The notes beneath the pieces were generated by a model, which did no database searches, had not been told where the DNA came from, and worked only from the letters and a program-made list of their open reading frames with translations. Shown here one piece after another: positions 2,129 through 21,402 of a stretch of DNA of 42,533 nt. Each line of letters starts with the position of its first letter. Positions within the stretch are counted from its first letter, which is position 1. The translations under genes and the position numbers were made by a program. Source of the stretch: a bacterium (lineage in GTDB: Bacteria > Patescibacteriota > Minisyncoccia > Phycocordibacterales > Phycocordibacteraceae); assembly GCA_021794425.1 (NCBI GenBank), contig JAJYQV010000037.1:1-42533 (forward strand). Direction: 5' to 3'.

Positions 2129-2247
2129 TACATGATGTATACCATGGAATACCTAATGTCCGCAAGTCCATAAAACTTGACGGCTGTGGAGAGCAGGATT
2201 ACCCTATAGGAAGGTCGACCATTACCCGACCCTAACCCTTCCCCCGT

Positions 2248-2699: not shown

Positions 2700-2720
2700 C
2701 GATCAATCGAGCAAGTTCGG

Positions 2721-2778
2721 AACGCCCGAACAAGCGTTTGTGCCATCGGCACGAGCGTTTGTTCGGGCGTTTTCGTTT
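2721..2778 (+). terminator. Rho-independent terminator-like hairpin
   Basis: AACGCCCGAACAA (2721-2733) pairs with TTGTTCGGGCGTT (2759-2771). There is an inner GTGCC/GGCAC stem, followed by TTTTCGTTT. Confidence 0.6.
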
Positions 2779-2799
2779 ATCCCCTTAAACCAACTAATC

Positions 2800-4140: not shown

Positions 4141-4579
4141 TGACAAACAGAAATTTCTCGACGAACTCGAGAACCTGCCGATCGTCTCGGTAGTGTGCAA
4201 GCGCGCTGGTATCAGCAAAGCGACCATCTATCGCTGGGTTGAGGATGATGCTGACTTCAAGAAGAAGTACGACCGCTCGTTGAAACGCGGGCGGGATACA
4301 CTCGTCGACCATGCCGAAAGCAAGCTCGTGAAGATGGCCGACAAAGAACACTTCGGGGCGATCAAGATGATTCTCGAGGCGAACTCAAAGCGCTACTACC
4401 GACCACGCAAACCAGCTCCGTATCTTAAAGAGGCATTGCCTGTCCAAACCATACAGGTTCATGTGGTTGAGCCGCATGAATACCAGCGCGCACAGGAAGA
4501 GACGCGACGCGCGAATCAAATAAGGAGAGACGCGAGATCGAACCCCCTGACAGATCCATGGGACGAGGCATCGGCGTGA
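4127..4579 (+). CDS. Helix-turn-helix protein, phage terminase-small-subunit-like
   Basis: 150 aa with VVCKRAGISKATIYRWVEDDADFKKKY, typical of phage-derived HTH / small terminase N-termini. Overlaps the methylase gene by 14 nt. Confidence 0.55.
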   Translation: MVPPDDKQKFLDELENLPIVSVVCKRAGISKATIYRWVEDDADFKKKYDRSLKRGRDTLVDHAESKLVKMADKEHFGAIKMILEANSKRYYRPRKPAPYLKEALPVQTIQVHVVEPHEYQRAQEETRRANQIRRDARSNPLTDPWDEASA

Positions 4580-4582
4580 TAA

Positions 4583-5479: not shown

Positions 5480-5591
5480 GCCGCGTCAGGGTTAAGGGTA
5501 TAAGCCTGATGAACGAGTAGTACAAAGACTGTCACTGACCGTGGAACCGGGTCCAATTGCAGACCCTTGAAAAGAGACGCTCTCATGGGAA

Positions 5592-5942
5592 CTACCCGAG
5601 CAATTCCTTTTTCTTAGCGGCGAATTCTTCGTCGCTGATCATCCCCCTCTCTTTGAGAGATGCCAGTTTCTCTAAACTAGAGATGTTATCCGTCGCAGAT
5701 GCGACATTCGATCCATCTTTCGACCAGCCCACGATCAATAGTCCGTTCTTGTCTTTGAAGTTGCCCGTCGCGATCATGATGAAGTCGATGAGGGTCCAGA
5801 TGCCGAGGCCGCCGAGCGTGAAGAGCATCAGGAGGCCTGTGCCAATCTTGCCGACATAGAAACGGTGAATACCAAGACATCCGAGGAACAAAACTAGGAG
5901 GAGCGCTACTAGGCGCGACTTCTCCGATTTTCTCTGTGTCAT
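5592..5942 (-). CDS. TM2 domain protein with C-terminal SHOCT motif
   Basis: The LGCLGIHRFYVGKIGTGLLMLFTLGGLGIWTLIDFI pattern matches the TM2 domain. The C-terminal LEKLASLKERGMISDEEFAAKKKELL matches SHOCT. Confidence 0.75.
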   Translation of the reverse strand: MTQRKSEKSRLVALLLVLFLGCLGIHRFYVGKIGTGLLMLFTLGGLGIWTLIDFIMIATGNFKDKNGLLIVGWSKDGSNVASATDNISSLEKLASLKERGMISDEEFAAKKKELLG

Positions 5943-6294
5943 ATATTTCTGCTAGATGGTAAATCCATGTGGTACAGAAAACCCACCACATGGGTGAGGA
6001 CTTTCGCCCTCCATACCGGTTTCCCGATATGACCAGTCAAGGCAAGCCCCATATGATGGGTTTTCTAGCCTCGACTGGTTTTTTCGACCATGCCCAGAAA
6101 TTTCTCCCCGGGTTTAGGTCATTTTTATTCGTGTGTAGAACGTGTACATAATAGCTCGTTTTCAGCTATCGTTGTAGACCCTAGCTTAGTATTAGGGGTT
6201 TGCGAAGAGGGCCTGCCAACAGGCGGGGTCTCGTGTCGGTGGGATTCTCGGTATCGTCCGTCTATTTACACTGTGGATTATTTCATCCATAGTC

Positions 6295-6318
6295 AGTATA
6301 CCCCCTAAGGGGTATACT
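6295..6318. promoter_or_regulatory. Candidate CsoR operator
   Basis: AGTATACCCC-CTAA-GGGGTATACT is a 10-nt perfect inverted repeat with a GC tract flanked by AT, ending 8 nt before the csoR ATG. Confidence 0.55.
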
Positions 6319-6325
6319 TCATTGC

Positions 6326-6601
6326 ATGAAATATATGGATGAAGAAAGTAAAAATCGCGTCATTCGCCGACTCAAGCTGCTCGAAGGGCAGGTTCGCGGT
6401 CTCCAAAAACTGGTGGAGAACGATACGTACTGTATCGATGTCATCACGCAAACCTCGGCGGTGAAGCAGGGGCTGTCCAATGTCGAAGATATGCTCCTTG
6501 AAAACCATCTGGGCCACTGCGTACATCGCCAGATGCACTCCGGTCAGACCAAGAAAGCGAAGGAGGAAATTATCAAGGTATATAAGCTCAAGAGAAAATA
6601 A
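6326..6601 (+). CDS. csoR: CsoR/RcnR-family copper-sensing repressor
   Basis: 91 aa. The RLKLLEGQVRGLQKLVENDTYCIDVITQTSAV...HLGHC pattern (DUF156) includes the Cys/His/Cys ligand set. Confidence 0.85.
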   Translation: MKYMDEESKNRVIRRLKLLEGQVRGLQKLVENDTYCIDVITQTSAVKQGLSNVEDMLLENHLGHCVHRQMHSGQTKKAKEEIIKVYKLKRK

Positions 6602-6604
6602 TAT

Positions 6605-8908
6605 ATGGCAGAAAATATATACAAAGTAAAAGGAATGCACTGCGCGAGCTGCGTATCCCTCATTCAGAATAAGGTTGGCAAGATTCCCGGCGTTGAAAAT
6701 GTCTCAGTCGGCCTTTCGACAGAAAAGGCAAAGGTTGTGTTCAAGGATGCACCTGTCGCGCTTAATACCTTGAATTCCGCCATCTCCCCATTCGGGTACT
6801 CGTTTGAAGATACCGGCAAGACCGCCGCTCAAATGGGCATGTCGGAGATGGATCACGCACGCATGGATCATAGCCAGAGCGGAGAGAAGAACATGGCTCT
6901 CGAAATGAAGTTCATTCTCCCGATGGTTGTATTTTCTTTCGCCATGATGCTATGGGATGTATTGAGTCAAAATGGCATCGTCCCTGCGATGCCGGAAAAT
7001 GCGTACGAAGTATCCCATCATCTCATGCCGATATTCGCTTCCTTCGTTCTCTTCGGCATTGGTCGGAGATATATCAAGGCGACGTGGGTCTTCCTTAAGA
7101 CCGGGATCGCCAATATGGATACGCTCGTCGGTATCTCGACAATCGTCGCCTTTATATACTCCTTCGCAGTTACCGCATTTGAAAAACCTCTCTCCGGCCT
7201 CTTGGATGTCAGCTCCAATTTTTATGACGTAGTAATAATCGTCATCGGCCTTATCGCATTTGGCCAGTTCCTTGAAGCCAGGGCAAAAAGAAAGACTAAC
7301 GAGGCTCTCCAGAAACTCGCCGAGCTTACCAGCAAATCCGCGCTCGTCGAACGTGACGGCAAGGAGATGGAAATCCCCATCGAAAAAGTGGAAATCGGCG
7401 ATGTGGTTATTATCAAACCGAATGAGCGCGTGCCAATCGACGGCCGCGTGGTAAATGGCAACAGCAGTATCGACGAGTCGAACCTGACCGGTGAATCGGT
7501 GCCGGTGGATAAAGCCACCGGCGACATGGTATTTGCTGGTACACAGAATTTCCAAGGACTCATCAAAATCAAGGTAGAAAAAGACAGCAAGGATACGGCT
7601 CTCGCGCATATCATAAAGATCGTTGAGAACGCACAGAACTCCAAAGCTCCTATTGAAAGAATTGCAGATAAGATATCCGGTGTATTCGTGTATGTCGTTA
7701 TCGTGCTTGCAGTCTTTACCTTCGCCTCGTGGCTCATATTCGCACCGGGCACATTCGGCCTGACCAAAGCACTTGCTCTCGCTATTTCCTCAACGATGGC
7801 GGTACTCGTCATCGCGTGCCCCTGCTCACTAGGCCTTGCTACCCCGACGGCAATCATTACCGGAGTCGGGACCGGCGCACGTCGAGGCATCCTCATCAAG
7901 AACGCCGAGAGTCTCGAGAAACTCGCAAAAGTGAATGCCATCGTATTCGACAAAACTGGTACGCTTACCGAAAACAAATTGTCGATTGAGGGAATCTTCT
8001 GCGAAGATAAGAATCACGTCTGTGATGCGGAAGACAAGGAATTCAAGCGATCCATTGCATATTCCATGACCAAATCATCGAAGCATCCGGTGTCGGAAAG
8101 TGTTGCCGTTTGGCTTCGGGACTCAAGGGCAGAAGCAGTACGAGTCGAGAAAATCGAAGAGGTGCCAGGCAAGGGCGTCACTGCTGAATTCAAGGGAGAG
8201 AAGTATTACCTCGGCTCCATCGGATACATCTCCGAAGTCCTTGCTCGAAAGCCGGAGAAGGTCAGGGAGAATTTCGATATTGGTCGCTTCGAAAGCGGGC
8301 GCGAACTGTATCTCGCTAACTCGAAACAAGTACTCTCGCTGATCAAGATCCACGATACAATCAAAGCAACGGCGTCACAGGAGGTGGCAAAGCTCAGGAA
8401 GCTCGGTTTGAAAATCGTCATGGCGACCGGCGACAACAAGAAAATCGGAGAAGCCGTAGCCAAGCAGCTCGGCATCGACGAAGTGTTTGCCGAGGTAAAG
8501 CCAGAAGACAAGCTCAGAATCGTCAAAGACTTGCAGGGCAAAGGATTGAAGGTGGCGATGATCGGTGACGGGGTGAACGACTCGCCCGCACTCGCACAGG
8601 CAGACGTCGCAATCTCAATGAGCGATGGATCGGATATCGCCATCGAAAGCTCGGATATCGTGCTTCTGAATGGCGATATTGGGAAGGTCGCGGAGGCGGT
8701 GAATCTTGCGAAGAAAACGAATCGGACGGTCTGGCAGAATCTCATCTGGTCATTCGGCTACAATTCGATTGGTATTCCGGTTGCAGCGGGAATTCTCGTA
8801 CCGTTCTGGGGCTGGACGTTGAGTCCTGCCATTGCCGGAGCGATCATGGCATTCGAAAGCGTGACGGTCGTTATGAATTCGCTTCGTCTTAAGAATGCAA
8901 AACTATAA
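6605..8908 (+). CDS. copA: Copper-translocating P1B-type ATPase
   Basis: 767 aa with HMA motif GMHCASCV, TM CPC motif (ACPCSLGLATP), DKTGTLT and GDGVNDSPAL. Confidence 0.92.
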   Translation: MAENIYKVKGMHCASCVSLIQNKVGKIPGVENVSVGLSTEKAKVVFKDAPVALNTLNSAISPFGYSFEDTGKTAAQMGMSEMDHARMDHSQSGEKNMALEMKFILPMVVFSFAMMLWDVLSQNGIVPAMPENAYEVSHHLMPIFASFVLFGIGRRYIKATWVFLKTGIANMDTLVGISTIVAFIYSFAVTAFEKPLSGLLDVSSNFYDVVIIVIGLIAFGQFLEARAKRKTNEALQKLAELTSKSALVERDGKEMEIPIEKVEIGDVVIIKPNERVPIDGRVVNGNSSIDESNLTGESVPVDKATGDMVFAGTQNFQGLIKIKVEKDSKDTALAHIIKIVENAQNSKAPIERIADKISGVFVYVVIVLAVFTFASWLIFAPGTFGLTKALALAISSTMAVLVIACPCSLGLATPTAIITGVGTGARRGILIKNAESLEKLAKVNAIVFDKTGTLTENKLSIEGIFCEDKNHVCDAEDKEFKRSIAYSMTKSSKHPVSESVAVWLRDSRAEAVRVEKIEEVPGKGVTAEFKGEKYYLGSIGYISEVLARKPEKVRENFDIGRFESGRELYLANSKQVLSLIKIHDTIKATASQEVAKLRKLGLKIVMATGDNKKIGEAVAKQLGIDEVFAEVKPEDKLRIVKDLQGKGLKVAMIGDGVNDSPALAQADVAISMSDGSDIAIESSDIVLLNGDIGKVAEAVNLAKKTNRTVWQNLIWSFGYNSIGIPVAAGILVPFWGWTLSPAIAGAIMAFESVTVVMNSLRLKNAKL

Positions 8909-8913
8909 ATCAT

Positions 8914-9813
8914 ATGTCACACAATCACGCGCACCCTTCAAATTACAACACGGCCTTTGTTATAGGCTTGGTTCTGAACATTGCCTTTGTCGCTATCGAA
9001 CTTTGGTTCGGCTACATCTCTCATTCGCTCGCCCTTACCTCAGACGCGGTGCATAACCTGACCGACGTGTTTGGCTTGCTGATCGCCTGGACGGGCATCT
9101 GGTTTGAGACCCGGACACCGAGCAAAAAGCACACGTACGGTTACGGTAGAGGATCTATTCTGACGTCGCTGTTTAATGCGATTCTGATATTCGTAGCAGC
9201 AGGAGGTATTTTTGTAGAAGCGCTCCATCGCATCAATATCCCAGCCAGTGTCATGGGGAGCACGGTTATGTGGGTTGCTGCGGTCGGTATTGTCATAAAC
9301 GGCGTCACAGCCTTCTTATTCATGAGAGGGCGTAAGAGTGATATCAACATTCGTGGCGCATTCGTGCACATGGCCGCCGATGCCGGGGTATCTCTCGGCG
9401 TGGTCTTTGCCGGTCTTGCCATCACCCTTACGGGAATTGCTTGGATTGATCCTGTGGTAAGCATCATTATCGCCGGAGTAATTATCTTCACTACATGGTC
9501 ACTCATGAAAGAGTCCCTGAACCTCTCGTTCGACGCCGTTCCAGAGTCCATCGATCTGGACCAAGTAAAAAAATATCTTGAAGGTATTACAGGTGTTGTC
9601 GCGGTACACGATTTGCATATCTGGGCGATAAGCACGAAAGAGACTGGTCTGACCGCGCATCTTATTTATGAAGACATGCCCGTTCCGGATGAAGCTTTAC
9701 TTCAGGTGGCCGATGATTTGCGCGACAAATTTCAGATCGGTCATACCACCCTGCAGACCGAGAAAGATCGGACTGGTCGTTACTGCAAATTAGAGCCAGA
9801 CACAATCATTTAA
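8914..9813 (+). CDS. Cation diffusion facilitator family transporter (CzcD/ZitB-like)
   Basis: 299 aa with multiple TM helices, the metal-site motifs SDAVHNLTD and HMAADAGVS, and a C-terminal cytoplasmic domain. Confidence 0.85.
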   Translation: MSHNHAHPSNYNTAFVIGLVLNIAFVAIELWFGYISHSLALTSDAVHNLTDVFGLLIAWTGIWFETRTPSKKHTYGYGRGSILTSLFNAILIFVAAGGIFVEALHRINIPASVMGSTVMWVAAVGIVINGVTAFLFMRGRKSDINIRGAFVHMAADAGVSLGVVFAGLAITLTGIAWIDPVVSIIIAGVIIFTTWSLMKESLNLSFDAVPESIDLDQVKKYLEGITGVVAVHDLHIWAISTKETGLTAHLIYEDMPVPDEALLQVADDLRDKFQIGHTTLQTEKDRTGRYCKLEPDTII

Positions 9814-9816
9814 TTT

Positions 9817-10830
9817 ATGAAATCACTCACATTCCACGTTTCCGGTACCCATTGCGCCGCATGCAAAATCTTCATCGAAGATATTCTGGGTGAGCAGGAT
9901 TTCATCAAGAAGTCCAACGTTGATCTCAAAAAAGAAACAGTCACCATCGAAACCGACAGCGACCAGAACCCCGAAGTGATGGCAGAGGAGCTGACAGAGA
10001 AGATCAGGAAGAACGGCTACACTCTCTCGGTAGGGAAAAAGGTAGACGAGAAAAAACAAGATGATGTCATTTGGAAAGCAATCCCAATAGGACTGGCATT
10101 TCTCATTCTTTTCTTCATCCTGCAAAAGTCCGGCATTTTGAATCTCGGCATCGGTGGCACGACGACTCCGGCCACGAGCTTCGTCATTGGACTCATCGCG
10201 TCGGCATCAAGCTGCCTTGCGGTGGTTGGCGGTCTGATCCTATCCCTCTCCGCGAAAGTGGCCCAGGATGAAAGTACCAAAACAAGCAAGAAACAATTCG
10301 TGCTCTTTCATGGCGGAAGACTGTTTGGGTTCGCTATTCTCGGTGGCGTGCTCGGCCTCGTCGGTCAGGCGATTGGTGTCAGTTTTACCTTCTCGGCGAT
10401 CCTCGGCCTCATAGCTTCGAGCGTCATGATATTACTCGGGCTTAACCTCGTAGGGGTTCTCAAGAAAAACAAAGTTGCTCTGCCGACCGGAATATTCGCC
10501 CACTTCAGAAAAGTCGAGCATTCGACCTTCGCCCCGATTTTTATCGGCATCGGCACATTCTTCCTGCCATGCGGCTTCACGCAAGCGATGCAGGTCGCTG
10601 CGCTCTCAAGCGGCTCATTCGTGTCTGGACTTCTCATCATGCTGTCGTTCGCACTCGGGACCCTTCCAATGCTTGCACTCTTGTCTTTCGGATCGGTGTC
10701 CTTTGCACATTCCAAACATGCGCCACTCTTCTTCAAATCTGCAGGCATCGTTGTGATCGGTCTCGGTATCTTCGCACTTCTTGCCGGTCTCGCGGGGCTG
10801 GGTGTCATCCGTCCTTTATTTAACATTTAA
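9817..10830 (+). CDS. HMA domain fused to a TauE/SafE- or DsbD_2-like multi-TM permease
   Basis: N-terminal SGTHCAACKIF heavy-metal-associated motif, followed by about six glycine-rich TM helices. Confidence 0.65.
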   Translation: MKSLTFHVSGTHCAACKIFIEDILGEQDFIKKSNVDLKKETVTIETDSDQNPEVMAEELTEKIRKNGYTLSVGKKVDEKKQDDVIWKAIPIGLAFLILFFILQKSGILNLGIGGTTTPATSFVIGLIASASSCLAVVGGLILSLSAKVAQDESTKTSKKQFVLFHGGRLFGFAILGGVLGLVGQAIGVSFTFSAILGLIASSVMILLGLNLVGVLKKNKVALPTGIFAHFRKVEHSTFAPIFIGIGTFFLPCGFTQAMQVAALSSGSFVSGLLIMLSFALGTLPMLALLSFGSVSFAHSKHAPLFFKSAGIVVIGLGIFALLAGLAGLGVIRPLFNI

Positions 10831-10850
10831 TCTTTTAGTAAAATTACTTT

Positions 10851-11249
10851 ATGAACAAAACCGCTTCGATCATCATCACGCTCGCTCTTGTTGCCGGTCT
10901 CGGCATTGTCTTCCTTGGAGGATCGAAGGACGGTGCTCCGACCGCTTCAACGGGAACGGCTCAGAACGTCGAAATACGGGATGGTGTTCAGTACGTCACT
11001 ATCAATGCGAAAGCTGGATACTCACCAAAAGTTTCCAGTGCGAAAGCTGGTATCCCAACGAAGCTCATTGTAAAAACTAACGGCACGTATGACTGCTCGG
11101 CTTCTCTCGTGATTCGATCCATCGGCTATCAGAAAATACTTCCTCAAACCGGAGAGGACACAATCGACATTGGTACTCCAGTGGCCGGACAACCCCTGCA
11201 GGGGGTATGCGGTATGGGGATGTATAACTTTCTCGTAAATTTTAGTTGA
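10851..11249 (+). CDS. Cupredoxin-like domain protein with N-terminal anchor
   Basis: 132 aa with an N-terminal TM segment and a beta-rich domain ending ...QGVCGMGMYNFLV (Cys/Met ligand-like). Last gene of the metal operon. Confidence 0.5.
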   Translation: MNKTASIIITLALVAGLGIVFLGGSKDGAPTASTGTAQNVEIRDGVQYVTINAKAGYSPKVSSAKAGIPTKLIVKTNGTYDCSASLVIRSIGYQKILPQTGEDTIDIGTPVAGQPLQGVCGMGMYNFLVNFS

Positions 11250-11329
11250 GGTAGCAAGAGTTTATCAACTCCTCGGGCTCGTAGGACGCTCTGGACTCCT
11301 TAGAGGGGTTGCGTCATTCCTTGTACTGT

Positions 11330-12649
11330 ATGAACACAATACAAGCGCCGGTGGGGTTTCCGGCCAAGCAAATACAAGCCCCTGTGAAGGTTAGATACTG
11401 CCTCTATGCCCGTAAGAGCACCGAGAGCGAGGAACGGCAGGTGCTCTCCATTGAGAGCCAAGTAAAGGAAATGCTCCAGCTCGCGGAACGAGAAGGACTT
11501 GAGGTAGTCGCCATGAAGCGAGAGAGCCACTCGGCTAAGGAGACCGGCCAGCGACCCATCTTCAACGAGATAATTGAAGAGATCCAGAGCGGCAAGTACA
11601 ACGGCATCCTCACCTGGGCGGCAGACCGCATCAGCCGAAATGCGGGCGACCTGGGTCGCGTCGTCGATCTCATGGATGCAGGACACTTGCAAGAGATTCG
11701 GACATTCAGCCAAGGCTTCAGGAATAACCCGAACGAGAAGTTCCTCCTGACGATTCTCGGCGGGCAAGCCAAGCTTGAGAACGACAATCGAGGCATCAAT
11801 GTGAAGCGCGGACTACGAACACGCGTCGAGATGGGTCTGTGGCCGACCACACCGCCGACTGGGTACATTACCCAACACGACATGCTAAAGAAGTGTCAGG
11901 TCATCATCGACCCCGAGCGCGGCGAGATAGTGAAGAAGATGTTCGAGAAGATGGCGTACGAGAAATGGAGCGGACGGCGCATCCACCACTGGCTCAAGTT
12001 CGACCTAAACTTCAAGACGGTCGGCAAGAAAAACCTCGCACTCTCAAACATCTTCCGCACCCTCCAGAACCCCTTCTACTACGGCGTCTTCGAGTATCCG
12101 AAGAAAAGCGGCAACTGGTATCAGGGCAAGCACGAGCCGCTTATCTCGAAGGAACTGTTCGACCAAGTACAGCTTCAAATGAAGCGCGACAACATCGTGC
12201 GGCAGGGGCACGAGTTCGCCTTCACCAAGCTGATGACCTGCGGTAAGTGTGGATCAGGCATAAGCGCGGAAGAGAAGTACAAGCCCCTCAAGGACGGCAC
12301 GACTAAGCGTTACATCTACTACGGATGCGGACGCTCGAAGAACAAGACGTGTCACGCCAAGTATCTGCAGGAGGAGGCACTAGTAGAGCAGCTGATTTCG
12401 CTCCTTGATCAGATTGACTTCAATACACTTGGCATCGAGCAGAAGTTCGAGGACGAGCTAAAGCGCTTCAACAAGTTCCAGCGCGGAGTGCTGGGTATCG
12501 CAAATAAAGGCGCGACTCACGCCGATATTGACCTCAAGACCTACGCGAAGTACACGCTCAAGGAAGGCACGAATGAGGAGCGACGGGAACTGATGGGGTG
12601 CTTTAAGTCGAAGCTCAAGATTACGGAAGGGATCGTGACCATCGAATAG
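11330..12649 (+). CDS. Large serine recombinase (resolvase/invertase N-domain + recombinase domain + zinc ribbon)
   Basis: YARKSTESEERQVLSIESQ contains the catalytic Ser context. A recombinase domain follows, with a CGKCGS...CGRSKNKTC Cys cluster. The start was taken at the ATG; the ORF track extends to a TTG at 11309. Confidence 0.85.
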   Translation: MNTIQAPVGFPAKQIQAPVKVRYCLYARKSTESEERQVLSIESQVKEMLQLAEREGLEVVAMKRESHSAKETGQRPIFNEIIEEIQSGKYNGILTWAADRISRNAGDLGRVVDLMDAGHLQEIRTFSQGFRNNPNEKFLLTILGGQAKLENDNRGINVKRGLRTRVEMGLWPTTPPTGYITQHDMLKKCQVIIDPERGEIVKKMFEKMAYEKWSGRRIHHWLKFDLNFKTVGKKNLALSNIFRTLQNPFYYGVFEYPKKSGNWYQGKHEPLISKELFDQVQLQMKRDNIVRQGHEFAFTKLMTCGKCGSGISAEEKYKPLKDGTTKRYIYYGCGRSKNKTCHAKYLQEEALVEQLISLLDQIDFNTLGIEQKFEDELKRFNKFQRGVLGIANKGATHADIDLKTYAKYTLKEGTNEERRELMGCFKSKLKITEGIVTIE

Positions 12650-12661
12650 TAGATCGAAAAT

Positions 12662-12698
12662 TCAAATCCCGTCGCGGTTTAACCGCGACGGGATTTGA
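12662..12698. terminator. Bidirectional hairpin between the recombinase gene and tRNA-Ser
   Basis: TCAAATCCCGTCGCGG / CCGCGACGGGATTTGA form a 16-nt perfect inverted repeat with a 5-nt loop. Confidence 0.55.
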
Positions 12699-12747
12699 GC
12701 AACTTTAAACAAGGCTCTCGGGTCACACCGATACTAAAGTCTTCGGG

Positions 12748-12834
12748 CGGAGGCGGAGAGATTCGAACTCTCGAGACCCTTTCGAGCCTGCCGCCTTTCC
12801 AAGGCGGTGGAATAAACCGCTATCCGACGCCTCC
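12748..12834 (-). tRNA. tRNA-Ser(GGA)
   Basis: Hand-folded. Acceptor GGAGGCG/CGCCTCC, anticodon loop TTGGAAA, long variable arm, T-loop GTTCGAATC, discriminator G. CCA is not encoded. Confidence 0.85.
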
Positions 12835-12956
12835 AAGCGTACTGTCCTGTTATAGCAGAAAAACGCTCGGTTTTCACGCCTTCGTGCCGAGGAGCGCGGC
12901 GACGTGGGCTTTGACCGTCGGCCGCACTTTCGCTCGAAGACTCGCTCAGCGCTGCA

Positions 12957-14607: not shown

Positions 14608-15168
14608 TTAAAACTGCACTTTCACCGGCTCTTTGGCCGCGGCGTCGGCGTCGGCGAGCTCGAAGAGGTCCATCTGCGAGAAGCCGAACTGGCCCGAAAT
14701 CAGGTTGTTCGGGAACGTCTGAATGGCCGTGTTGAATGCCATGACGGTCGTGTTGTAGAAACGGCGGGCGGCCTGGATCTTGTCCTCGGTGTCGCCGAGC
14801 TCGCGCTGGAGCTGGAGGAAGTTCTGGTTCGCCTTCAGGTCCGGATACGCTTCGGACACCGCGAAGAGCGACTTGAGGGTGCCCTCGAGCATGTTCTCGG
14901 CCTTTGCCTTGTCGGCGGTGCCCGTCGCGCCCATGGCAGCCGTGCGCGCGGCCGTCACGTCTTCAAAGACGGTCTTCTCGTGTGCGGCGTAGCCCTTCAC
15001 CGTCTCGACGAGGTTCGGGATGAGGTCGTAGCGGCGCTTGAGCTGCACGTCGATATCGGCCCACGCCTCCTTGGCGCGGTTCCGCAGGGTCACGAGGCCG
15101 TTGTAGGCGAAAATGAGCCAGAGCACGATAATAGCTAGCACTATAAGTACGGTGGTGGTTGTGGTCAT
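14608..15168 (-). CDS. lemA: LemA family protein
   Basis: N-terminal TM segment, then YNGLVTLRNRAKEAWADIDVQLKRRYDLIPNLVETVKGYA. The start was trimmed to MTTTTTV. Confidence 0.85.
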   Translation of the reverse strand: MTTTTTVLIVLAIIVLWLIFAYNGLVTLRNRAKEAWADIDVQLKRRYDLIPNLVETVKGYAAHEKTVFEDVTAARTAAMGATGTADKAKAENMLEGTLKSLFAVSEAYPDLKANQNFLQLQRELGDTEDKIQAARRFYNTTVMAFNTAIQTFPNNLISGQFGFSQMDLFELADADAAAKEPVKVQF

Positions 15169-15190
15169 ATGCCTCCAGTATACTACGGCT

Positions 15191-17644
15191 ATGCAATCTG
15201 GCGACCCCATCGAGAAGCACTTCCCGCGGATGAAGAGCGGCCAGAAGAAGGCGCTCGGGAAGCTCGGGATACGCACGCTCCGCGACCTCCTCTACCACTT
15301 CCCTGCCCGCTACGAGAACGCGGGCCCGACCGGCACGATCACGAGCGTGACCCCCGGCGCCGAGGTCACGCTCTTCGGCACAGTGAGGAAGCCCGACGTG
15401 CGCAAAGCTTGGAAGAGCCGCAAGCCGCTCGCCGAGGCGTGGCTCGAAGACAACTCCGGCAAGATAAAGATGATGTGGTTCTCCCAGCCCTACATCGCAA
15501 AAACGCTCCACGACGGCATGCACGTGCGCGTGACGGGGCGCATCGCGGGCGAGGGCGCAAAAGCATACCTCGCGAATCCGAAAATCGAGAAAAGTGCGAT
15601 CGAGCCCGGCAACCTCCATAATTCCCTCTTCGCCCGTACCGAGGATTTAAATGTTAAACATTTAAATCCGGAGGATGTGCGCGAGTCGCTCTTCAACACC
15701 CAAGTAGTTAGGACATCCGATGTCCTAACTTCTGAAGAAGGGCATCCGATGTTCACGGACGCGGCGCTGCACAGCGTGTATCCCGAGAGCAAGGGCGTCT
15801 CCTCGCTCTGGATCACCCACGCGGTGAAGAAGCTGTTTGAAGCGGGCGTGCACGAGAGGATCGAGGACCCGATTCCGGGCGACATCCTCGCGCGCTACAA
15901 GCTGCCCTCGCTCGCGAGTGCGCTCGTCTTCATACACGCGCCGCGCAAAAAGAGCGACGCGGACGCCGCGCGCAAACGCTTCGCGTTCGAGGAGATCTTT
16001 GCGCTCCAGGTGGTGATGCAGATGCGCCGGCGCGCGCACCTCGCCGAAGAGGCTCTCCCCGTCACCGTCGACCGGAAAGCACTCCAGGATTTCATCGCCT
16101 CGTACCCGTTCCCTGCCACCGACGCGCAGCTCTCCGCGATCGATTCGATCGTCTCCGACTTCGAGCAGCGTCACCCGATGCTCCGACTCCTCGAGGGCGA
16201 TGTGGGCTCGGGCAAGACCGCCGTTGCCGCCGCGACGGCATATCTGGTAGTTACTTCACTCCCTCCCAAAGTTCTCGAACGTGACAAAAAGCTTCCAGAT
16301 GCAAGGCGCGGGCAGGCGATTTCTGGAGGCGTACTGAAGGGTACGACGGAAGAAATCGACGGGGCCCGCAACGCAGCAGCTGGAGCTTTTGGGCATGTTC
16401 GAGGAGGGTACCTCCAGGTCGCATACTTGGTCCCGACCGAAATACTCGCCAAGCAGCACTTCTCGACCTTCGTCTCCTATTTCAAAGACCACCCGATCCC
16501 GATCGGCCTCATCACCGGCAATGAGTGCCGCGTCTTCCCGTCAAAGATCCGCTACGAAGAGTCCGCAAAGATCTCAAAGGCGGCGTTCAAGAAACGCGTC
16601 GCCGAGGGCACCATCCCCATCGTCATCGGCACCCACGCACTCGTCGAGAAGACGCTCACGTTCAAATACTTCGCGTACGCCATCATCGACGAGCAGCACC
16701 GGTTCGGCACGATGCACCGCCAGAAGCTCGCGACCAAGGGCGCGGTTGCACCCCAAGAGTACTTCCATTTTACTAACGCGGATGACCGCGAAGTAAAATG
16801 GGGCGCGCCGCACCTCCTCTCTATGACCGCGACGCCGATTCCCCGCACGCTCGCGCTCACCCTCTACGGCGACCTCGACCTCACGCTCCTCGACCAGATG
16901 CCCTCGGGGCGCAAACCCATCAAGACGGAAGTCCTCGGCCCCGAGAAGCGCGAGGAAGCGTATGCGCGCGTACGTGCCGAGCTCGTCGCGGGTCGCCAAG
17001 CCTACGTCATCTGCCCGCGCATCGACGAGCCCGATCCGACCAAAGAGCTCGCGCTCCAGGCGAAGTCGGTAGTCGCCGAGGCGGCACGTCTGAAAAAAGA
17101 GGTCTTTCCGCATGCGACCATCGGCATCCTCCACAGCAAGATGCGCCCTGCAGAAAAAGAAGAGGCGATGCAGAAATTCGAGAAGGGCGAGACGCAGATC
17201 CTCGTGGCCACTTCGGTGGTCGAGGTGGGCGTGAATGTGCCCAACGCGACGGTCATACTCATCGAGGGCGCCGAGCGCTTCGGGCTCGCCCAGCTCCACC
17301 AGCTGCGCGGCCGCGTCATCCGTTCAAATCACCAGGCGTACTGCTTTGCGCTCCCCGAGTCGTTCGGGCAAGCGACCAAAGACCGCATGAAAGCGTTCAC
17401 GCAGGCGAAGAACGGATTCGAGCTCGCCGAGTACGACCTCGGCCTGCGCGGCGCGGGCGAGCTCACCGGCGGCCGGCAGTGGGGCGTCTCCGACATCGCG
17501 ATGGAAGCCCTGAAGAACCTCAAGCTCGTCGAGGCCGCGCGCACCGAGGCAGCGAAACTGGTCGCAGTTGACCCCGACCTGCGCGCCCATCCGACGCTCG
17601 CGCTGCGCGCTCGCGCCGCCGACGCCGAGATGCACCTGGAATAA
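15191..17644 (+). CDS. recG: ATP-dependent DNA helicase RecG, unusually long because of in-frame insertions
   Basis: Wedge-domain N-terminus, GDVGSGKT, PTEILAKQH, DEQHRFG, MTATPIPRTL and QLHQLRGRVIR. The start was trimmed to MQSGDPIEKHF. Confidence 0.9.
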   Translation: MQSGDPIEKHFPRMKSGQKKALGKLGIRTLRDLLYHFPARYENAGPTGTITSVTPGAEVTLFGTVRKPDVRKAWKSRKPLAEAWLEDNSGKIKMMWFSQPYIAKTLHDGMHVRVTGRIAGEGAKAYLANPKIEKSAIEPGNLHNSLFARTEDLNVKHLNPEDVRESLFNTQVVRTSDVLTSEEGHPMFTDAALHSVYPESKGVSSLWITHAVKKLFEAGVHERIEDPIPGDILARYKLPSLASALVFIHAPRKKSDADAARKRFAFEEIFALQVVMQMRRRAHLAEEALPVTVDRKALQDFIASYPFPATDAQLSAIDSIVSDFEQRHPMLRLLEGDVGSGKTAVAAATAYLVVTSLPPKVLERDKKLPDARRGQAISGGVLKGTTEEIDGARNAAAGAFGHVRGGYLQVAYLVPTEILAKQHFSTFVSYFKDHPIPIGLITGNECRVFPSKIRYEESAKISKAAFKKRVAEGTIPIVIGTHALVEKTLTFKYFAYAIIDEQHRFGTMHRQKLATKGAVAPQEYFHFTNADDREVKWGAPHLLSMTATPIPRTLALTLYGDLDLTLLDQMPSGRKPIKTEVLGPEKREEAYARVRAELVAGRQAYVICPRIDEPDPTKELALQAKSVVAEAARLKKEVFPHATIGILHSKMRPAEKEEAMQKFEKGETQILVATSVVEVGVNVPNATVILIEGAERFGLAQLHQLRGRVIRSNHQAYCFALPESFGQATKDRMKAFTQAKNGFELAEYDLGLRGAGELTGGRQWGVSDIAMEALKNLKLVEAARTEAAKLVAVDPDLRAHPTLALRARAADAEMHLE
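15643..15669. repeat. AT-rich palindrome inside the recG coding sequence
   Basis: GGATTTAAATGTT-A-AACATTTAAATCC, with 13-nt perfect arms. Confidence 0.9.
15706..15730. repeat. Palindrome inside the recG coding sequence
   Basis: AGTTAGGACATC-C-GATGTCCTAACT, with 12-nt perfect arms. Confidence 0.9.
16261..16408. repeat. ~150-nt imperfect nested inverted repeat inside recG, between helicase motifs I and Ia
   Basis: The outer arms share CCCTCC, TCGAAC and AAAAGCT..CCAG (16261-16298 vs 16380-16408). Inner perfect pairs are CGATTTCT/AGAAATCG (16317-24/16351-58) and CGTAC/GTACG (16330-34/16341-45). Confidence 0.7.
16765..16801. repeat. 37-nt hairpin element inside recG
   Basis: CCATTTTACT-AA-CGCGG-ATGA-CCGCG-A-AGTAAAATGG. 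Confidence 0.85.
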
Positions 17645-17648
17645 CTAG

Positions 17649-17683
17649 TCCGCCCGCTTGGACTCGAACCAAGGACCGATCCG
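17649..17683 (-). tRNA. 3' half (positions 39-73) of a split or disrupted tRNA-Val(UAC)-like gene
   Basis: CGGAT CGGTC CTTGG TTCGAGT CCAAG CGGGCGG A. The acceptor strand is perfectly complementary to the 5' half at 17863-17869. Confidence 0.5.
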
Positions 17684-17731
17684 GTATACGTAGGCGTACG
17701 GCCATCGGCCTCGTTCGAAATAAAACTGGAG

Positions 17732-17807
17732 TGGTGGGCGTGCCTGGACTCGAACCAGGAACCGCAGAGGTATAAGCTCTGTGCTCTAACCATTGAGCTA
17801 CACGCCC
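17732..17807 (-). tRNA. tRNA-Ile(UAU), CCA encoded
   Basis: GGGCGTG TA GCTC AATGGTTA GAGC A CAGAG CTTATAC CTCTG CGGTT CCTGG TTCGAGT CCAGG CACGCCC A CCA. Confidence 0.85.
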
Positions 17808-17831
17808 AGTTTATTTCTCTCTCGCCCTCGC

Positions 17832-17869
17832 CCGTAAGCGGAGTGCTCTACCAACTGAGCTACGGGCGG
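17832..17869 (-). tRNA. 5' half (positions 1-38) of a split or disrupted tRNA-Val(UAC)-like gene
   Basis: CCGCCCG TA GCTC AGTTGGTA GAGC A CTCCG CTTACGG. No T-arm follows it. Confidence 0.5.
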
Positions 17870-17984
17870 ATGTGCTCATAGTATACCAACGCAAAGGGTA
17901 CGAACAGGCGCGTGGCCTCGCCATCTTCCTCGCATAATGGTATGGTGAAAAGCGGTTTTTGTTCAACATTGAAAAGGAAAAAAG

Positions 17985-18374
17985 ATGAAAATCGAATCGC
18001 CCTCCAGCGAGGGCTTCCAAAAAAAGCCTTCCGTTCGTTTGCAGTACACCTCTGGGGCTGTTGTGCTACAGCAGTCCCTCTTCACCGCGGCGAAAGACAT
18101 CTGCGATGGAGCCGCCACCGTGATCGACGCGCGCGGCGTGCCTATCCCAAGTGCGGCAATGGTGATTTGCCGCCGCGTGAGCAGCCGTGAGGGGGCAGGG
18201 GCAGGCGCCGTCCAAGCCGTTAAGGCGGGGGTCGACTTCTTCATCCTTCTAAGGGGGTTCATCAAAGAGCCACCCATTCCATCGAGTTCGTGCCGTCCTT
18301 CCGGGACGTGCCTCGACTCGGGGGATGATTGCGGCACTTGCTGCAATCGCGCGCGAACGCGCGCGGAGGAATAA
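17985..18374 (+). CDS. Hypothetical 129-aa protein with Cys-rich C-terminus
   Basis: ATG preceded by AAGGAAAAAAG and GC3-rich codons. It converges with ftsH on a shared bidirectional terminator. It has only a weak GAGAVQAVKA...RGF resemblance to SpoVS-type proteins. Confidence 0.4.
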   Translation: MKIESPSSEGFQKKPSVRLQYTSGAVVLQQSLFTAAKDICDGAATVIDARGVPIPSAAMVICRRVSSREGAGAGAVQAVKAGVDFFILLRGFIKEPPIPSSSCRPSGTCLDSGDDCGTCCNRARTRAEE

Positions 18375-18393
18375 AAAACAAAGGGAATATATT

Positions 18394-18423
18394 CCCAAAA
18401 CCCCGGCATCGCGTCCGGGGTTT
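18394..18423. terminator. Bidirectional rho-independent terminator (ftsH / 129-aa ORF)
   Basis: AAACCCCGG-catcgcgt-CCGGGGTTT, flanked by an A-run and a T-run. The adjacent GGGAATATATTCCC mini-palindrome is at 18383-18396. Confidence 0.7.
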
Positions 18424-18425
18424 GC

Positions 18426-20384
18426 TTATTTTTGCAACGGAGCGGCCGCGCGTATGTCCTCTTCCTTCTTCTTCGGCGTGATGCCGTTGAGCACCAGAAT
18501 CTTTTCGAAGCCATCGCGCTCAACCGTCTCTTTCTCCATGAGCTCTTTCGCGATGGCATCGAGCGCGCCGCGGTGTTCCCCTATGACCTTTGCCGCACGA
18601 GCCTTCCCTTCCTCGATGATGCGCGACACTTCCGCGTCGATCTCTGCCGCCACTTGCTCCGAGTACGGCTCGCGCCCAAGCTCGCGCTCGCCGAAGGCGA
18701 TGGGCCCGAGCTTGTCGCTCATGCCATAACGCGAGACCATGTCGCGCGCGAGCGCCGTGATGACTTGCAGGTCGTTGGAGGGCCCGGTCGTCACGTCGTC
18801 AAAGAGCATCTCTTCGGCCACGTACCCGCCAAGCGTCGCTGCGATGTCGTCGAGAAACTGTTTCTTCGATTGCATCTTACGGTCGTCAAACGGCAGCTTG
18901 AGCGTGTAGCCCGCCGCGCGGCCGCGGCTGATGATGGATATCTTGTGCACCGGGTCGGCATGCTCAAGCACCGAGGAGACGAGCGCGTGGCCGGCCTCGT
19001 GATACGCAGTGAGCTCTTTCTCTTTCTGCGAGAGCAGGTGCGACTTCCGCTCGGGGCCGAGCATCACCTTCTCGATGGAGCGGATGAGGTCATACTGGGT
19101 GACTTCTTTGCGATTATCACGCGCGGCGAGAATCGCGCCCTCGTTCATGAGGCTGTAGAGCTCGGCGCCCGAGAAGCCCGGCGTGCGCTCGGCAATGACG
19201 GAGAGCACCACATCCGGCCCGAGCGGCTTCTTGCGTGCGTGAATCTTGAGAATCTCCTCGCGATCGCGGCGATCGGGCAGATCAATGGTGACCCGCCGGT
19301 CGAAACGGCCGGGGCGCAGGAGCGCCGGGTCGAGCACGTCGGGGCGATTGGTCGCCGCCATCACGACGACTTTTTCGGTGGGCTCAAAGCCGTCCATCTC
19401 AACGAGAATCTGATTGAGCGTCTGCTCGCGCTCGTCGTTGCCGCCGCCCATGCCCGCGCCGCGCGTGCGCCCCACCGCGTCTATTTCGTCGACAAAGATG
19501 ATGGCCGGAGCCGCTTTCTTTGCCATCTGAAAGAGATCACGCACGCGCGAAGCGCCGACGCCGACGAACATTTCGACGAACTCCGAACCAGAAATAGAGA
19601 AGAACGGCACGCCCGCCTCGCCTGCGACGGCTCGGGCGAGCAACGTTTTTCCCGTGCCCGGCGCGCCCATGAGGATGATGCCCTTGGGGATCCGCGCGCC
19701 GATGTCGAGAAACTTCTTCGGGTTCTTGAGGAAATCGACGATCTCGAAGAGTTCTTCCTTTGCTTCGCGTGCGCCGGCAACGTCGGCAAATGTGACCCGC
19801 TGCGATGAGTCTGCGGGATCGGTGATGCGTGCCTTCGACTGGCCGAAGCTGAACGCCTGCATGCCCGCCCCCCGCACCTGCCGCGAGAGGAACCAGAACA
19901 GGAACGCGATAAAGAGAATCGGGATGAAAATCGGCGCGAGATTGAGGAACCAGAACTCGAAGCCCGACTGCCCCTGTATCGTGATAGCGACCTTGGCAAG
20001 CTCTTCCGGCGTGACGCCATAGGTCGCGAGCGTCTCGGGCAGGCCGGCCGACGGGTCTTTGCGCGACGTCTTCGCCGAGCCGTCAGCATAGGAGAGATTG
20101 AGCGCGTCGCCATTCACCGTGATCGCGCTCACCTTTCCTGCGGCGACGTCCGCCGCGACGGCAGAGAGCGGGATCTCCTTGTTTGGCTGCGCAACGCCCG
20201 TGATGAGCGAGTAGATGCTCATGAGAATAAGGAACGTGAGGATGGTCGTGGCGAGATTGCCGAAGAAAGACGGACCGCCAAAGAGCGCTTTCCACCCGCG
20301 GCGCTTCACACGTTTCGGGAGGCCCGCCACCGGCGGCAGTGCGCCTTTCTTCTTTCTCGGCTTTCTCGGAGATGCGGTTGGCAT
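18426..20384 (-). CDS. ftsH: ATP-dependent zinc metalloprotease FtsH
   Basis: 652 aa with two N-terminal TM segments, Walker [12 protein letters not shown], an AAA+ SRH region and the HEAGHA zinc motif. Confidence 0.95.
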
Positions 20385-20407: not shown

Positions 20408-20851
20408 ATGACCCTCGTCGAATACAAAAAGGCATTCCTCCGGTTTGCGCCGGTCGAAACGTTTGCCGCCGGCATCGAGCTTACCGGCGGCGAAGTGAAG
20501 GCGCTCCGGCAGAAGCTCGGGAGCCTCGACGGCGCGCGCGTGGTGGTGCGCGGCGGCGAAGCGTTCATCGTGGGGCTTACCATCCCGCCCTACCAGGCCG
20601 CGAACACTCAGAAGGGCTACGACAGCGAGCGCCCGCGCCGCCTGCTCCTCACGAAGAAAGAGCTCGCGCACCTCGCCGCCGAAGAATCAAAGAAAGGATT
20701 GACAATCGTACCTTTTGAGTTGTATACTGCTGGCAGGCTCGTGAAGGCAAAGATTGCGATCGTGCGCGGCAAAGGCAAAGCCGACCGCCGCGAAGACCTG
20801 AAGAAGCGCGATGCTTCGCGAGAAACCGCACGTGTTTTGAAAAATCGTTAG
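20408..20851 (+). CDS. smpB: SsrA-binding protein SmpB
   Basis: 147 aa with ...ETFAAGIELTGGEVKALR...RPRRLLLTKKEL...LVKAKIAIVRGKG. tmRNA lies immediately downstream. Confidence 0.9.
   Translation: MTLVEYKKAFLRFAPVETFAAGIELTGGEVKALRQKLGSLDGARVVVRGGEAFIVGLTIPPYQAANTQKGYDSERPRRLLLTKKELAHLAAEESKKGLTIVPFELYTAGRLVKAKIAIVRGKGKADRREDLKKRDASRETARVLKNR
20699..20728 (+). promoter_or_regulatory. Sigma70-like promoter consensus inside the 3' end of smpB (candidate ssrA promoter)
   Basis: TTGACA (20699-20704), 18-nt spacer, TATACT (20723-20728). It lies about 260 nt upstream of the tmRNA 5' end. Confidence 0.3.
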
Positions 20852-20988: not shown

Positions 20989-21394
20989 GGGGGTGACCGG
21001 CTTTGACGGTCTGTCCTTTGAAAGACGTGCGACGCCGTGCATGCTCACCCACCACGTAAATCTGCGTGAGCAACGAAACTTGCCAAGAACACTCTTGCAA
21101 GCGTGGAGTCTCCGTACTTCGGTATGAAGGACTTCGCGTTCGCTCCCGCCTTCGCCTAACCGCGCCAGGCCGGACGACGTCTGTACCCTTGAGTTCCCTC
21201 AGTTGAGGATACAGGCGGAGTAATCTGAAGGATCGCTTACTCGCCTCCCGCCGAGAATAGCTAAATAAGGGATCGGGCAGGAATGGTTTCGTCGACGTTC
21301 CGCGCATCCTGCCTCAGACTCTAACGCCGACTACGCGTCGTAGACTCTCTTTCATAGCCAGATTCGGACGGGAGTTCAACTCTCCCCACCTCCA
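20989..21394 (+). ncRNA. ssrA: tmRNA (SsrA)
   Basis: The 5' end GGGGGTGACCGGCTTTGACGG and the 3' end GGACGGGAGTTCAACTCTCCCCACCTCCA form a tRNA-Ala-like acceptor with a G3:U70 pair. An internal reading frame ends ...FAFAPAFA-TAA. Confidence 0.85.
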
Positions 21395-21402
21395 CTCGAT
21401 TC

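Follow-up and report, generated by a model that had tools for sequence, protein, structure and literature searches.

Within a 42,533-nucleotide (nt) stretch of a Patescibacteriota genome (contig JAJYQV010000037.1 of assembly GCA_021794425.1, analyzed at its full length and called the window below), one tRNA gene lies inside another. On the minus strand, a 148-nt insert at 17834-17687 separates the two halves of an outer tRNA-Ile(UAU) gene, and the insert itself carries a complete inner, or cargo, tRNA-Ile(UAU). The point of insertion is between A35 and U36, in the anticodon loop of a bacterial tRNA gene. Sequence comparison with relatives establishes this insertion site, the covarying architecture of the insert, its scattered (polyphyletic) distribution, filled and empty sister loci, nesting in multiple layers, and a contrast in conservation between the inner and outer genes. 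The explanation that we favor, with a probability of about 0.55, is that a mobile structured element disrupts the resident tRNA-Ile(UAU) gene and itself provides the tRNA that replaces it, such that the outer halves are not rejoined.

A tRNA gene nested in the anticodon loop of a second tRNA gene

The locus lies between recG (15113-17644, plus strand) and ftsH (18426-20384, minus strand). The outer 5′ half occupies minus-strand positions 17869-17835, reads CCGCCCG TA GCTC AGTTGGTA GAGC A CTCCG CTTA and corresponds to tRNA positions 1-35, while the outer 3′ half at 17686-17649 (minus strand) reads TAC CGGAT CGGTC CTTGG TTCGAGT CCAAG CGGGCGG A and corresponds to positions 36-73. Joining the exons as CTTA+TAC brings ...GCACUCCGCUUA to UACCGGAUCGG.... 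The acceptor strands pair at 7/7 positions and the anticodon stem at 4/5, the C27/U43 mismatch being the single defect in an otherwise complete outer gene. The inner tRNA-Ile(UAU) at 17807-17735, followed by an encoded CCA, is found by ARAGORN and scores 73.6 bits against the Rfam tRNA model. It is bracketed by an inverted repeat in which AAATAAACT plus GG (17816-17806) pairs with CCAGTTTTATTT (17729-17718) with one bulged T. The two genes have distinct anticodon stems in the window (CUCCG...CGGAU in the outer gene versus CAGAG...CUCUG in the cargo). The insert is without an open reading frame (ORF), TA alone is repeated at its two ends, and ~75 nt remain when the tRNA is subtracted. An earlier note on this DNA, made from the letters alone, had described two halves of one tRNA gene flanking a complete tRNA-Ile(UAU), and this arrangement is borne out by the sequence, ARAGORN, Rfam and relatives; the acceptor complementarity and the mismatch that it reported were both seen again, and its inverted repeat is real. 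The features of the locus are as follows.

17880..17888, minus strand: extended -10-like box TGgTATACT, identified by eye, ending 11 nt upstream of outer position 1 (10-nt spacer)
17835..17869, minus strand: outer tRNA-Ile(UAU) 5′ exon, positions 1-35, ending CTTA (C32 U33 U34 A35), homologous to the 5′ part of intact relatives' genes at the same locus
17829..17834, minus strand: P1 5′ strand CGGGCG (6 nt), with which the insert opens, pairing 5/6 with UGGCCG at 17699-17704
17817..17828, minus strand: J5′ purine-rich strand AGGGCGAGAGAG, with the family motif GCGAG/GAGAG found in all copies
17806..17816, minus strand: P2 5′ strand (leader), comprising AAATAAACT and the two G with which the inner tRNA begins, assigned from sequence; the leader/trailer helix covaries between loci
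17732..17807, minus strand: inner (cargo) tRNA-Ile(UAU), 73 nt, plus encoded CCA at 17732-17734 (ARAGORN; Rfam 73.6 bits)
17718..17729, minus strand: P2 3′ strand (trailer) CCAGTTTTATTT, the partner arm of the inverted repeat
17705..17717, minus strand: J3′ strand CGAACGAGGCCGA, with the family motif CGA(A/G)CGAG conserved across copies
17699..17704, minus strand: P1 3′ strand UGGCCG, directly 5′ of P3
17687..17698, minus strand: P3 hairpin UACG-CCUA-CGUA, whose final nucleotide is the final nucleotide of the insert
17649..17686, minus strand: outer tRNA-Ile(UAU) 3′ exon, positions 36-73, starting TAC (U36 A37 C38), with discriminator A73 and no encoded CCA; the joined exons are called tRNA-Ile(tat) by ARAGORN

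The box upstream of the outer 5′ half is the sole promoter-like element of the whole unit, and for this reason the unit is probably a single transcript. None stands upstream of the 3′ half, and the leader of 27 nt is too short for a second promoter. In relatives, similar boxes of the TGnTAnnnT type precede tRNA-Ile genes, plain or nested, at an equal distance. A scan for consensus -35/-10 promoters across 17550-18450 returned no site, and the promoter assignment is the extended -10 box found by eye.

Could the arrangement be an artefact or a coincidence? An identical 243-nt stretch (window 17648-17890) is present in contigs from two other samples, with 1-2 mismatches in the surrounding 5.4 kb, and on these grounds the nested arrangement is not an assembly artefact. 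The same architecture is found in more than 20 other assemblies. Chance is likewise excluded, since ARAGORN calls the joined halves a tRNA and the halves are orthologous to intact tRNAs at the same locus. When ARAGORN was run with introns of up to 300 nt allowed, a check proposed in the earlier note, the split outer gene was not called. A search for a second copy in the window found none, leaving one copy in 42 kb.

The outer gene is a resident tRNA-Ile(UAU)

Loci from relatives, denoted by L numbers, were drawn from the 80 closest RecG relatives among species-representative genomes, which are metagenome-assembled and share 62-73% RecG identity with the window. Most are labelled Paceibacterota, Kaiserbacteria, Parcubacteria or Patescibacteria (candidate phyla radiation), and some only 'bacterium' or Saccharibacteria. 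A tRNA-Ile(UAU) called by ARAGORN adjoins recG in nearly all 80, in either orientation. In many of them the tRNA of the recG-ftsH locus is uninterrupted and reads CCGCCCc TA GCTC AGyTGGTTA GAGC A TCGAG CTTATAC CTCGA GGGTC CTTGG TTCGAGT CCAAG gGGGCGG A; these intact genes and the window halves are alike in their unusual C1-G72 acceptor stem, T-arm and A73. The halves are thus not unrelated sequences, a point on which the earlier note had proposed comparison with relatives, and are orthologous to an intact tRNA-Ile(UAU). Three nested relatives give the join more directly. The L057 exons joined as CTTA+TAC are identical at 75/75 positions to the intact tRNA of its sister L061, the joined L005 exons match the intact tRNAs of L038 and L047 at 75/75, and those of L002 match the L039 tRNA at 74/75. 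Since TA stands at both ends of the insert, several junction boundaries are permitted by sequence alone; the join is placed at CTTA+TAC because filled and empty pairs and the intact orthologues read CTTATAC. With this join, ARAGORN calls the outer gene of the window tRNA-Ile(tat). We take the outer gene, judged by its orthologues, to be the resident tRNA-Ile(UAU) of a Paceibacteria/Kaiserbacteria-like genome of the candidate phyla radiation.

The earlier note had instead identified the outer gene as tRNA-Val(UAC), which as a split or intron-containing gene would be joined CTTAC+AC. This join is allowed by the sequence, and ARAGORN names its product tRNA-Val(tac). Moreover, C is the first inserted nucleotide in most copies of the window's subfamily, such that CTTAC is conserved. 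However, the intact orthologues at the same locus, the filled and empty pairs and the tRNA-Ile(tat) call all place the join elsewhere, and other subfamilies start the insert with A or T (L090, L148, L122). The comparative data contradict the valine identity, which we regard as very improbable and reject.

A recurrent insert with a covarying, junction-anchored architecture

The insert belongs to a family found at more than 20 independent loci. Ten of the 80 recG loci are nested or hold remnants of nesting: the outer exons rejoin into tRNA-Ile in L002 (with one T-stem mismatch), L005 and L057, the outer gene of L003 is damaged, the outer 5′ half has decayed in L029 and L048, the 3′ side of the outer gene is lost in L037 and L068, and the 5′ side in L001. 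A metagenome scan with the cargo tRNA 3′ end returned mostly ordinary tRNA-Ile(GAU) genes, together with further nested loci (L090, L122, L137, L140/L189, L148, L160, L169, L179, L181, L184 and L195). In L090 the outer tRNA-Ile(UAU) is quite different, with its own acceptor stem and T-arm. A scan of viral contigs with the same 3′ end gave no match.

All copies share one order of parts, which runs from the 5′ exon ending CUUA through the P1 5′ strand, J5′ (GCGAG/GUGAG/GAGAG), the P2 5′ strand, the cargo tRNA, the P2 3′ strand, J3′ (CGA(A/G)CGAG), the P1 3′ strand and P3 (which starts UA and ends UA) to the 3′ exon beginning UAC. P1 begins at the first inserted nucleotide, its 3′ strand P1′ abuts P3, and P3 finishes at the last inserted nucleotide, so that the two junctions adjoin. 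From locus to locus the helices vary in sequence and keep their positions, that is, they covary. P1 is formed by CGGGCG/UGGCCG in the window and L005, CCGGCG/UGCCGG in L057, CGGGCG/UGCACG in L195, CAACC/GGAUG in L048, AAACUGG/CCAGUUU in L090, CAAU/AUUG in L179, UAAUUUCA/UGGAAUUA in L140 and UAAAAUC/GAUUUUA in L148. P3 is formed by UACG/CGUA in the window, UAUG/CAUA in L005, UAUGC/GCAUA in L057, UACC/GGUA in L048, UAUCGCAC/GUGCGAUA in L029 and UAUGGCCC/GGGCCAUA in L090. The P2 leader/trailer helix covaries in the same manner (GGAACAAAAGCGC/GCGCTTTTGTTCC in L057, a 21-bp helix in L090). In a positional test against shuffled arms, the P1 plus P3 arrangement was found in 10/13 loci with per-locus p values of 0-0.08, and the Fisher-combined shuffle p is ~5e-10 over all 13 loci and over nine distinct sequences alike. 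Unconstrained folding of the arms, with the tRNA replaced by GAAA, gives a rod of P1, J and P2 in most loci and P3 in eight. J5′ stands opposite J3′ in a purine-rich rod, where G-C and tandem G.A pairs could alternate, and in the window P2 bears the cargo tRNA at its tip. At the exon junctions, CTTA and TAC show little or no variation in the alignment of nested loci, and both junctions always follow UA. Searched with cmscan against Rfam at permissive expectation values (E up to 10 for the window region and up to 1 for seven other nested loci), the arms match no family, and only the tRNA and chance matches were returned. An origin of the arms in the degenerate halves of a previous outer tRNA was rejected, as local alignment to tRNA halves is no better than for shuffled arms.

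One hypothesis for so exact a structure is that the insert is a genuine bacterial tRNA intron of a new kind, neither group I nor bulge-helix-bulge. It would be cut at its two UA/N junctions and the exons joined to a working outer tRNA-Ile(UAU), either by a host endoribonuclease with an RtcB-type ligase or by catalysis in the core of ~70 nt, which is composed of the GA-rich rod and a hairpin. The cargo tRNA would be freed from the excised intron to yield two tRNA-Ile(UAU) per transcript, and homing into the anticodon loops of tRNA-Ile(UAU) genes, its own cargo among them, would explain nesting in several layers. We consider this hypothesis, the main rival to the favored explanation, with both of its routes taken together, possible but doubtful. 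The helices anchored at the first and last inserted nucleotides, with their combined shuffle probability, argue for it, as do the constant UA before both junctions, the near-invariance of CTTA and TAC, and the exons that are identical to intact orthologues in some copies. On the other hand, without the tRNA the insert comprises only ~75 nt, in which no model of a ribozyme or intron finds a match. In addition, L003 and L169 have a junction variant, TCAC, in common, with exons of two different host types, and joining at the usual sites then gives an 8-nt loop.

Turnover and layers of nesting

Nested loci are scattered over a RecG neighbor-joining tree, and sister pairs differ in state (L057 filled and L061 empty; L003 nested and L011 intact). 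The RecG proteins of L005 and L048 are nearly identical, and their inserts are wholly different in arms and cargo tRNA (GGGCGTG type versus GCGCCCT type). Empty sites are seamless. In L179 the nesting is double, with a second, older 3′-half remnant and a leader/trailer helix around the outer tRNA, and L122 and L137 are composite loci. Taken together, these comparisons show an element that evidently moves or turns over. In L048 the GCGCCCT-type tRNA is the cargo, in L002 it is the outer gene that was invaded, and in L039 and L056 it is a plain resident. Because one tRNA type is seen in all three states, the data fit a cycle that would pass through invasion, decay of the outer gene, establishment of the cargo as resident and renewed invasion.

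As a separate observation, parts of the outer 3′ exons of L002 and L003 are identical to the cargo tRNA 3′ half, resulting in stem mismatches with the outer 5′ exon. This suggests gene conversion between the inner and outer copies at these two loci.

The inner gene is conserved more strictly than the outer gene

Stem pairs were counted on an alignment of 13 nested units. In the inner tRNA all 21 stem pairs are standard in 13/13 loci, such that all four helices score 100% (273 cells). In the outer tRNA, standard pairs occupy 91% of cells in the acceptor helix, 94% in the D helix, 84% in the anticodon helix and 97% in the T helix, with 23 unpaired stem cells overall. ARAGORN calls the joined outer exons tRNA-Ile in 8/13 loci, finds them abnormal in three and does not recognize them in two. 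Compared with its sister L011, the L003 outer gene has four uncompensated changes: U33C, an extra C that expands the loop to 8 nt, and two in the stems. Part or all of the outer halves is missing in L029, L048, L037, L001, L068, L140, L160, L181 and L184. Every anticodon-loop copy seen carries tRNA-Ile(UAU), the same identity as its target. These counts show selection to differ between the two genes, apparently strict on the inner and relaxed on the outer.

How does this bear on splicing? The eight outer genes that can be called as tRNA-Ile once joined, and the compensatory nature of some stem differences in the outer exons, are what a working intron would predict. However, a same-identity tRNA is superfluous for a self-sufficient intron, yet every copy in an anticodon loop carries one, and outer genes decay in about half of the loci while the inner tRNA has no unpaired stem position in 13.

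Cores that carry no tRNA

The part of the insert other than the tRNA, here called the core, also occurs in other settings. The P2 of L122 is closed by a 12-nt loop, and it is the P3 loop that houses the tRNA together with a leader/trailer helix of its own; this independence of core and cargo is a further point in favor of an intron. In L033 (~4380-4490), L040 (~3266-3345) and L183 (~3500-3570), a tRNA-less core lies antisense and directly upstream of a plain tRNA-Ile(UAU). It consists of J5′ GAGUGAGG, a P2 hairpin, J3′ CGCCGAACGAG and P3, and a 9-nt direct repeat of tRNA positions 1-9 flanks it. An antisense orientation is hard to square with a purely co-transcriptional role and counts against the intron. 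In L146 (4851-4930, plus strand), a tRNA-less core follows the 3′ end of tRNA-Val(GAC); the 3′ acceptor strand CCGCCCA recurs as a direct repeat flanking this core, and P1′ (UGGGCG) pairs with the flanking repeat. Finally, a lone core in L056 (~625-722, plus strand) is intergenic, upstream of recG and directly behind a TAGTATACT promoter-like box, and may be an independent small RNA or an insertion in a 5′ untranslated region. Wherever a tRNA-less core lies next to a tRNA gene the neighboring tRNA is intact, and among the 200 loci scanned no cargo-less core interrupts a tRNA-Ile 5′ half. Loose descriptor searches were noisy (105 matches versus 69 in reversed sequence, and 46 versus 31), and from them only the full-architecture matches in L056, L146, L033, L040 and L183 were used; the MAFFT alignment of four tRNA-less cores is out of register. 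These loci show that the core is modular and that its association with tRNA genes takes more than one form.

Perfect palindromes based on CGTCGTTCG-CGAACGACG also adjoin tRNA 5′ ends, where the acceptor strand is duplicated, in L110 (~2500-2540, at tRNA-Ile(GAU)) and L094 (~5658-5700), and others lie downstream of a tRNA in L180/L196. They may be related small hairpin elements.

Another hypothesis is that the insert acts at the level of DNA, as a miniature element moved in trans by an enzyme of the HUH/IS200-IS605 type or by a recombinase that crosses over at TA, with the helices serving as recognition structures in single-stranded DNA. It would refine the favored explanation and not replace it, and we judge it unlikely. 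TA (or TATA) stands at both ends of every anticodon-loop copy, in the form CT-TA-[element]-TA-TAC, and P1′ lies directly 5′ of the P3 foot, where it pairs with the left end or, in cores at tRNA ends, with the flanking repeat. The TA at both ends and this layout of a hairpin plus a guide suggest a mobility reaction on DNA, possibly on a single strand, and the seamless empty sites and the presence of cores in either orientation to tRNA genes, as well as between genes, are consistent with it. Conversely, the insert has no terminal inverted repeats, its flanking repeats vary in length (2, 4 or 9 nt) and only one copy is present in the window. In IS608 the hairpin lies 8-10 nt inside the element, unlike the right-end hairpin here, which contains the junction. 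No transposase gene was found beside any copy, and the serine recombinase encoded at 11309-12649 lies at the edge of a separate tRNA-Ser island with no link to the insert.

A proposed model for replacement of the resident tRNA gene

One question is how an insertion into an essential gene is tolerated. In the explanation that we favor, a mobile element that disrupts the resident tRNA-Ile(UAU) would be tolerated since it brings a replacement. The whole unit would be transcribed from the promoter of the outer gene, and the cargo tRNA would be freed by ordinary end processing, presumably RNase P at the 5′ end and trimming at the 3′ end, with CCA already encoded. The released cargo would decode AUA. 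We infer the processing enzymes and a lack of splicing, in that the outer halves would most likely not be rejoined and the disrupted gene would stay recognizable for a time and then decay. In time the cargo tRNA would become the resident gene and be open to new invasion. We favor replacement because the cargo always has the identity of its target, because only outer genes decay, and because cargo-less cores avoid disrupting tRNAs. Among the possibilities raised in the earlier note, the one nearest to the comparative data is a miniature element that carries a tRNA and has disrupted a tRNA gene.

Several observations weigh against replacement. A precise, RNA-like structure with covarying helices is kept at both junctions, which would be needless for a dead insertion, and by an informal count by eye the helices hold more G.U than A.C mismatches. 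Under the model this structure has to serve mobility or maturation of the cargo tRNA, both hypothetical here. Eight of the 13 copies with both junctions, that of the window included, join to a perfect or near-perfect tRNA-Ile. Outer exons identical to the intact tRNAs of other species require either a recent insertion each time or purifying selection, and some outer-exon differences are compensatory, for example pair 7-66 in the window versus L005 and pair 13-22 in L169. No transposase, recombinase or endonuclease is linked to the element. The searches were anchored on the recG neighbor or on the cargo tRNA, so that interrupted genes without cargo are under-sampled.

Other features of the window

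A transfer-messenger RNA (tmRNA) gene at 20989-21397 (plus strand) scores 104 bits against Rfam and is not reported by ARAGORN. It lies just downstream of an smpB-like ORF (~20408-20851), and in L201 the gene called at the corresponding position encodes SmpB. Matches to two orphan families of structured RNA exceed the gathering scores, LOOT RNA at 5996-6120 (minus strand, 93 bits) and DUF3800-V RNA at 38999-39115 (plus strand, 61 bits). Positions 1-12850 have a lower GC content (~0.48-0.55 versus ~0.60 in the core), and this block ends at a tRNA-Ser(GGA) at 12745-12835. Adjoining that tRNA, the large serine recombinase at 11309-12649 has Resolvase, Recombinase and Zn_ribbon_recom domains, and upstream of it are encoded a cation-efflux protein, an HMA/DsbD_2 protein and a cupredoxin-like protein; the block looks like an integrated metal-resistance island. 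The GC content falls to 0.42-0.46 at 40001-42533. The RecG ORF (15113-17644, plus strand) encodes 843 residues (817 in the L201 gene call), and relatives align over ~720-760 codons, such that the RecG of the window seems to have ~80-100 extra residues. ARAGORN made a single intron call among the loci; it concerns a tRNA-Ser in L074 that falls within recG and was discarded as a false positive.

Comparison with known systems

Bacterial tRNA genes have been described as uniform, and group I introns, with group II also mentioned, as their only significant structural variation (PMC4033280). The insert resembles a group I intron in its position in the anticodon loop, its conserved secondary structure and its patchy, mobile-looking distribution. 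Group I introns interrupt the anticodon loops of cyanobacterial tRNA-Leu(UAA) and tRNA-fMet, Azoarcus tRNA-Ile(CAU) and Agrobacterium tRNA-Arg; their hallmarks are a P3-P9 core, the smallest known being ~200 nt, a 5′ splice after a U paired with G in P1, and a 3′-terminal G. In contrast, the insert has no such core, as its size and the absence of an Rfam match indicate and as the earlier note had concluded, and it carries a tRNA gene. In nearly all copies it ends ...GTA, ...ATA or T, not G, at any permitted boundary, and the nucleotide before the 5′ junction is A35, where P1 places no U.G pair. Splicing is seen in group I introns and only putative here.

Bulge-helix-bulge introns, the protein-spliced tRNA introns of archaea and eukaryotes, have two 3-nt bulges that contain the splice sites, separated by a 4-bp helix; they are cut by the endonuclease EndA, and a ligase joins the exons. 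When this motif was threaded by hand onto the junctions, no 4-bp exon-intron helix between opposed bulges could be drawn: the 5′ junction lies directly between four unpaired nucleotides of the loop and P1, and the 3′ junction directly between the last P3 pair and three unpaired nucleotides. In archaea, a box C/D small RNA is hosted in the intron of tRNA-Trp. The nested genes are similar in that a second functional RNA lies inside the intervening sequence of a tRNA and in that segments move between tRNA genes, as do the mobile tRNA introns of Thermoproteales (PMC10714607, citing Fujishima et al. 2010). They differ in having a bacterial host, no bulge-helix-bulge, and as hosted RNA a full tRNA with the identity of the host gene.

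Split tRNAs are known from Nanoarchaeum and Caldivirga (PMC4033280), and tri-split tRNAs have also been described (PMC10714607). In split tRNAs of the Nanoarchaeum type each half is a gene with a promoter of its own, and the halves are joined in trans. As in those genes, 5′ and 3′ halves with complementary extras, here P1 and P2, would be able to hold together. However, the halves in the window are 148 nt apart on one strand with a single promoter-like box, not separate genes, and intact orthologues indicate a secondary disruption and not an ancestral split, which speaks against the genuinely split tRNA that the earlier note had entertained.

Phages and genomic islands that integrate in tRNA genes bring along a copy of the part that they displace, such that the gene stays intact; an integrase-borne island encodes its integrase and has a direct repeat of the tRNA 3′ part at its far end. 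Specificity for tRNA genes and the bringing of a replacement for the disrupted target are shared with the insert. The differences are its size of 148 nt, the absence of an integrase, the delivery of a whole tRNA gene and not of the displaced 3′ part, and nesting in place of a restored gene with a flanking repeat. Correia and IS630-derived elements are bacterial miniature inverted-repeat elements that duplicate TA, a type marked by many dispersed copies, and the insert is like them in being ~100-150 bp long and non-coding, with TA at both ends and the capacity to fold into a long hairpin. Unlike them, it has no terminal inverted repeats, since P1 pairs the 5′ end with a segment at least 12 nt from the 3′ end and a separate hairpin follows; it is also present as one copy in 42 kb, strictly associated with tRNA genes, and carries a tRNA. 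Hairpin elements derived from IS200/IS605 have subterminal hairpins, a guide sequence beside the hairpin foot and a fixed short target on the left; they make no duplication and depend on a Y1 transposase in the genome. The fixed left flank (C/T)TA and the guide-like P1′ at the foot of P3 recall these elements, from which the insert differs in a hairpin that contains the right junction and in flanking repeats of 2-9 nt.

Because each kind tested had at least one defining feature that was lacking here or gave no clear outcome, we rate the element as outside the known kinds, with a hypothetical mechanism. In a full-text literature search, no account of nested tRNAs in these bacteria came up, nor any of tRNA introns outside group I. 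Standard tRNA finders report the inner gene only, such that loci of this type are missed in annotations of the candidate phyla radiation. If the outer gene is spliced, the insert would represent a new bacterial splicing system. If it is not, the element would have a new selfish strategy, in which it sits in an essential single-copy gene by carrying the replacement, with serial turnover of tRNA genes by nesting. In either case, the anticodon loop of a bacterial tRNA gene is interrupted by a full tRNA gene for the same isoacceptor. This interruption is recurrent and structured, differs in kind from group I and group II introns, and breaks the long-standing rule that bacterial tRNA genes are uniform (PMC4033280).

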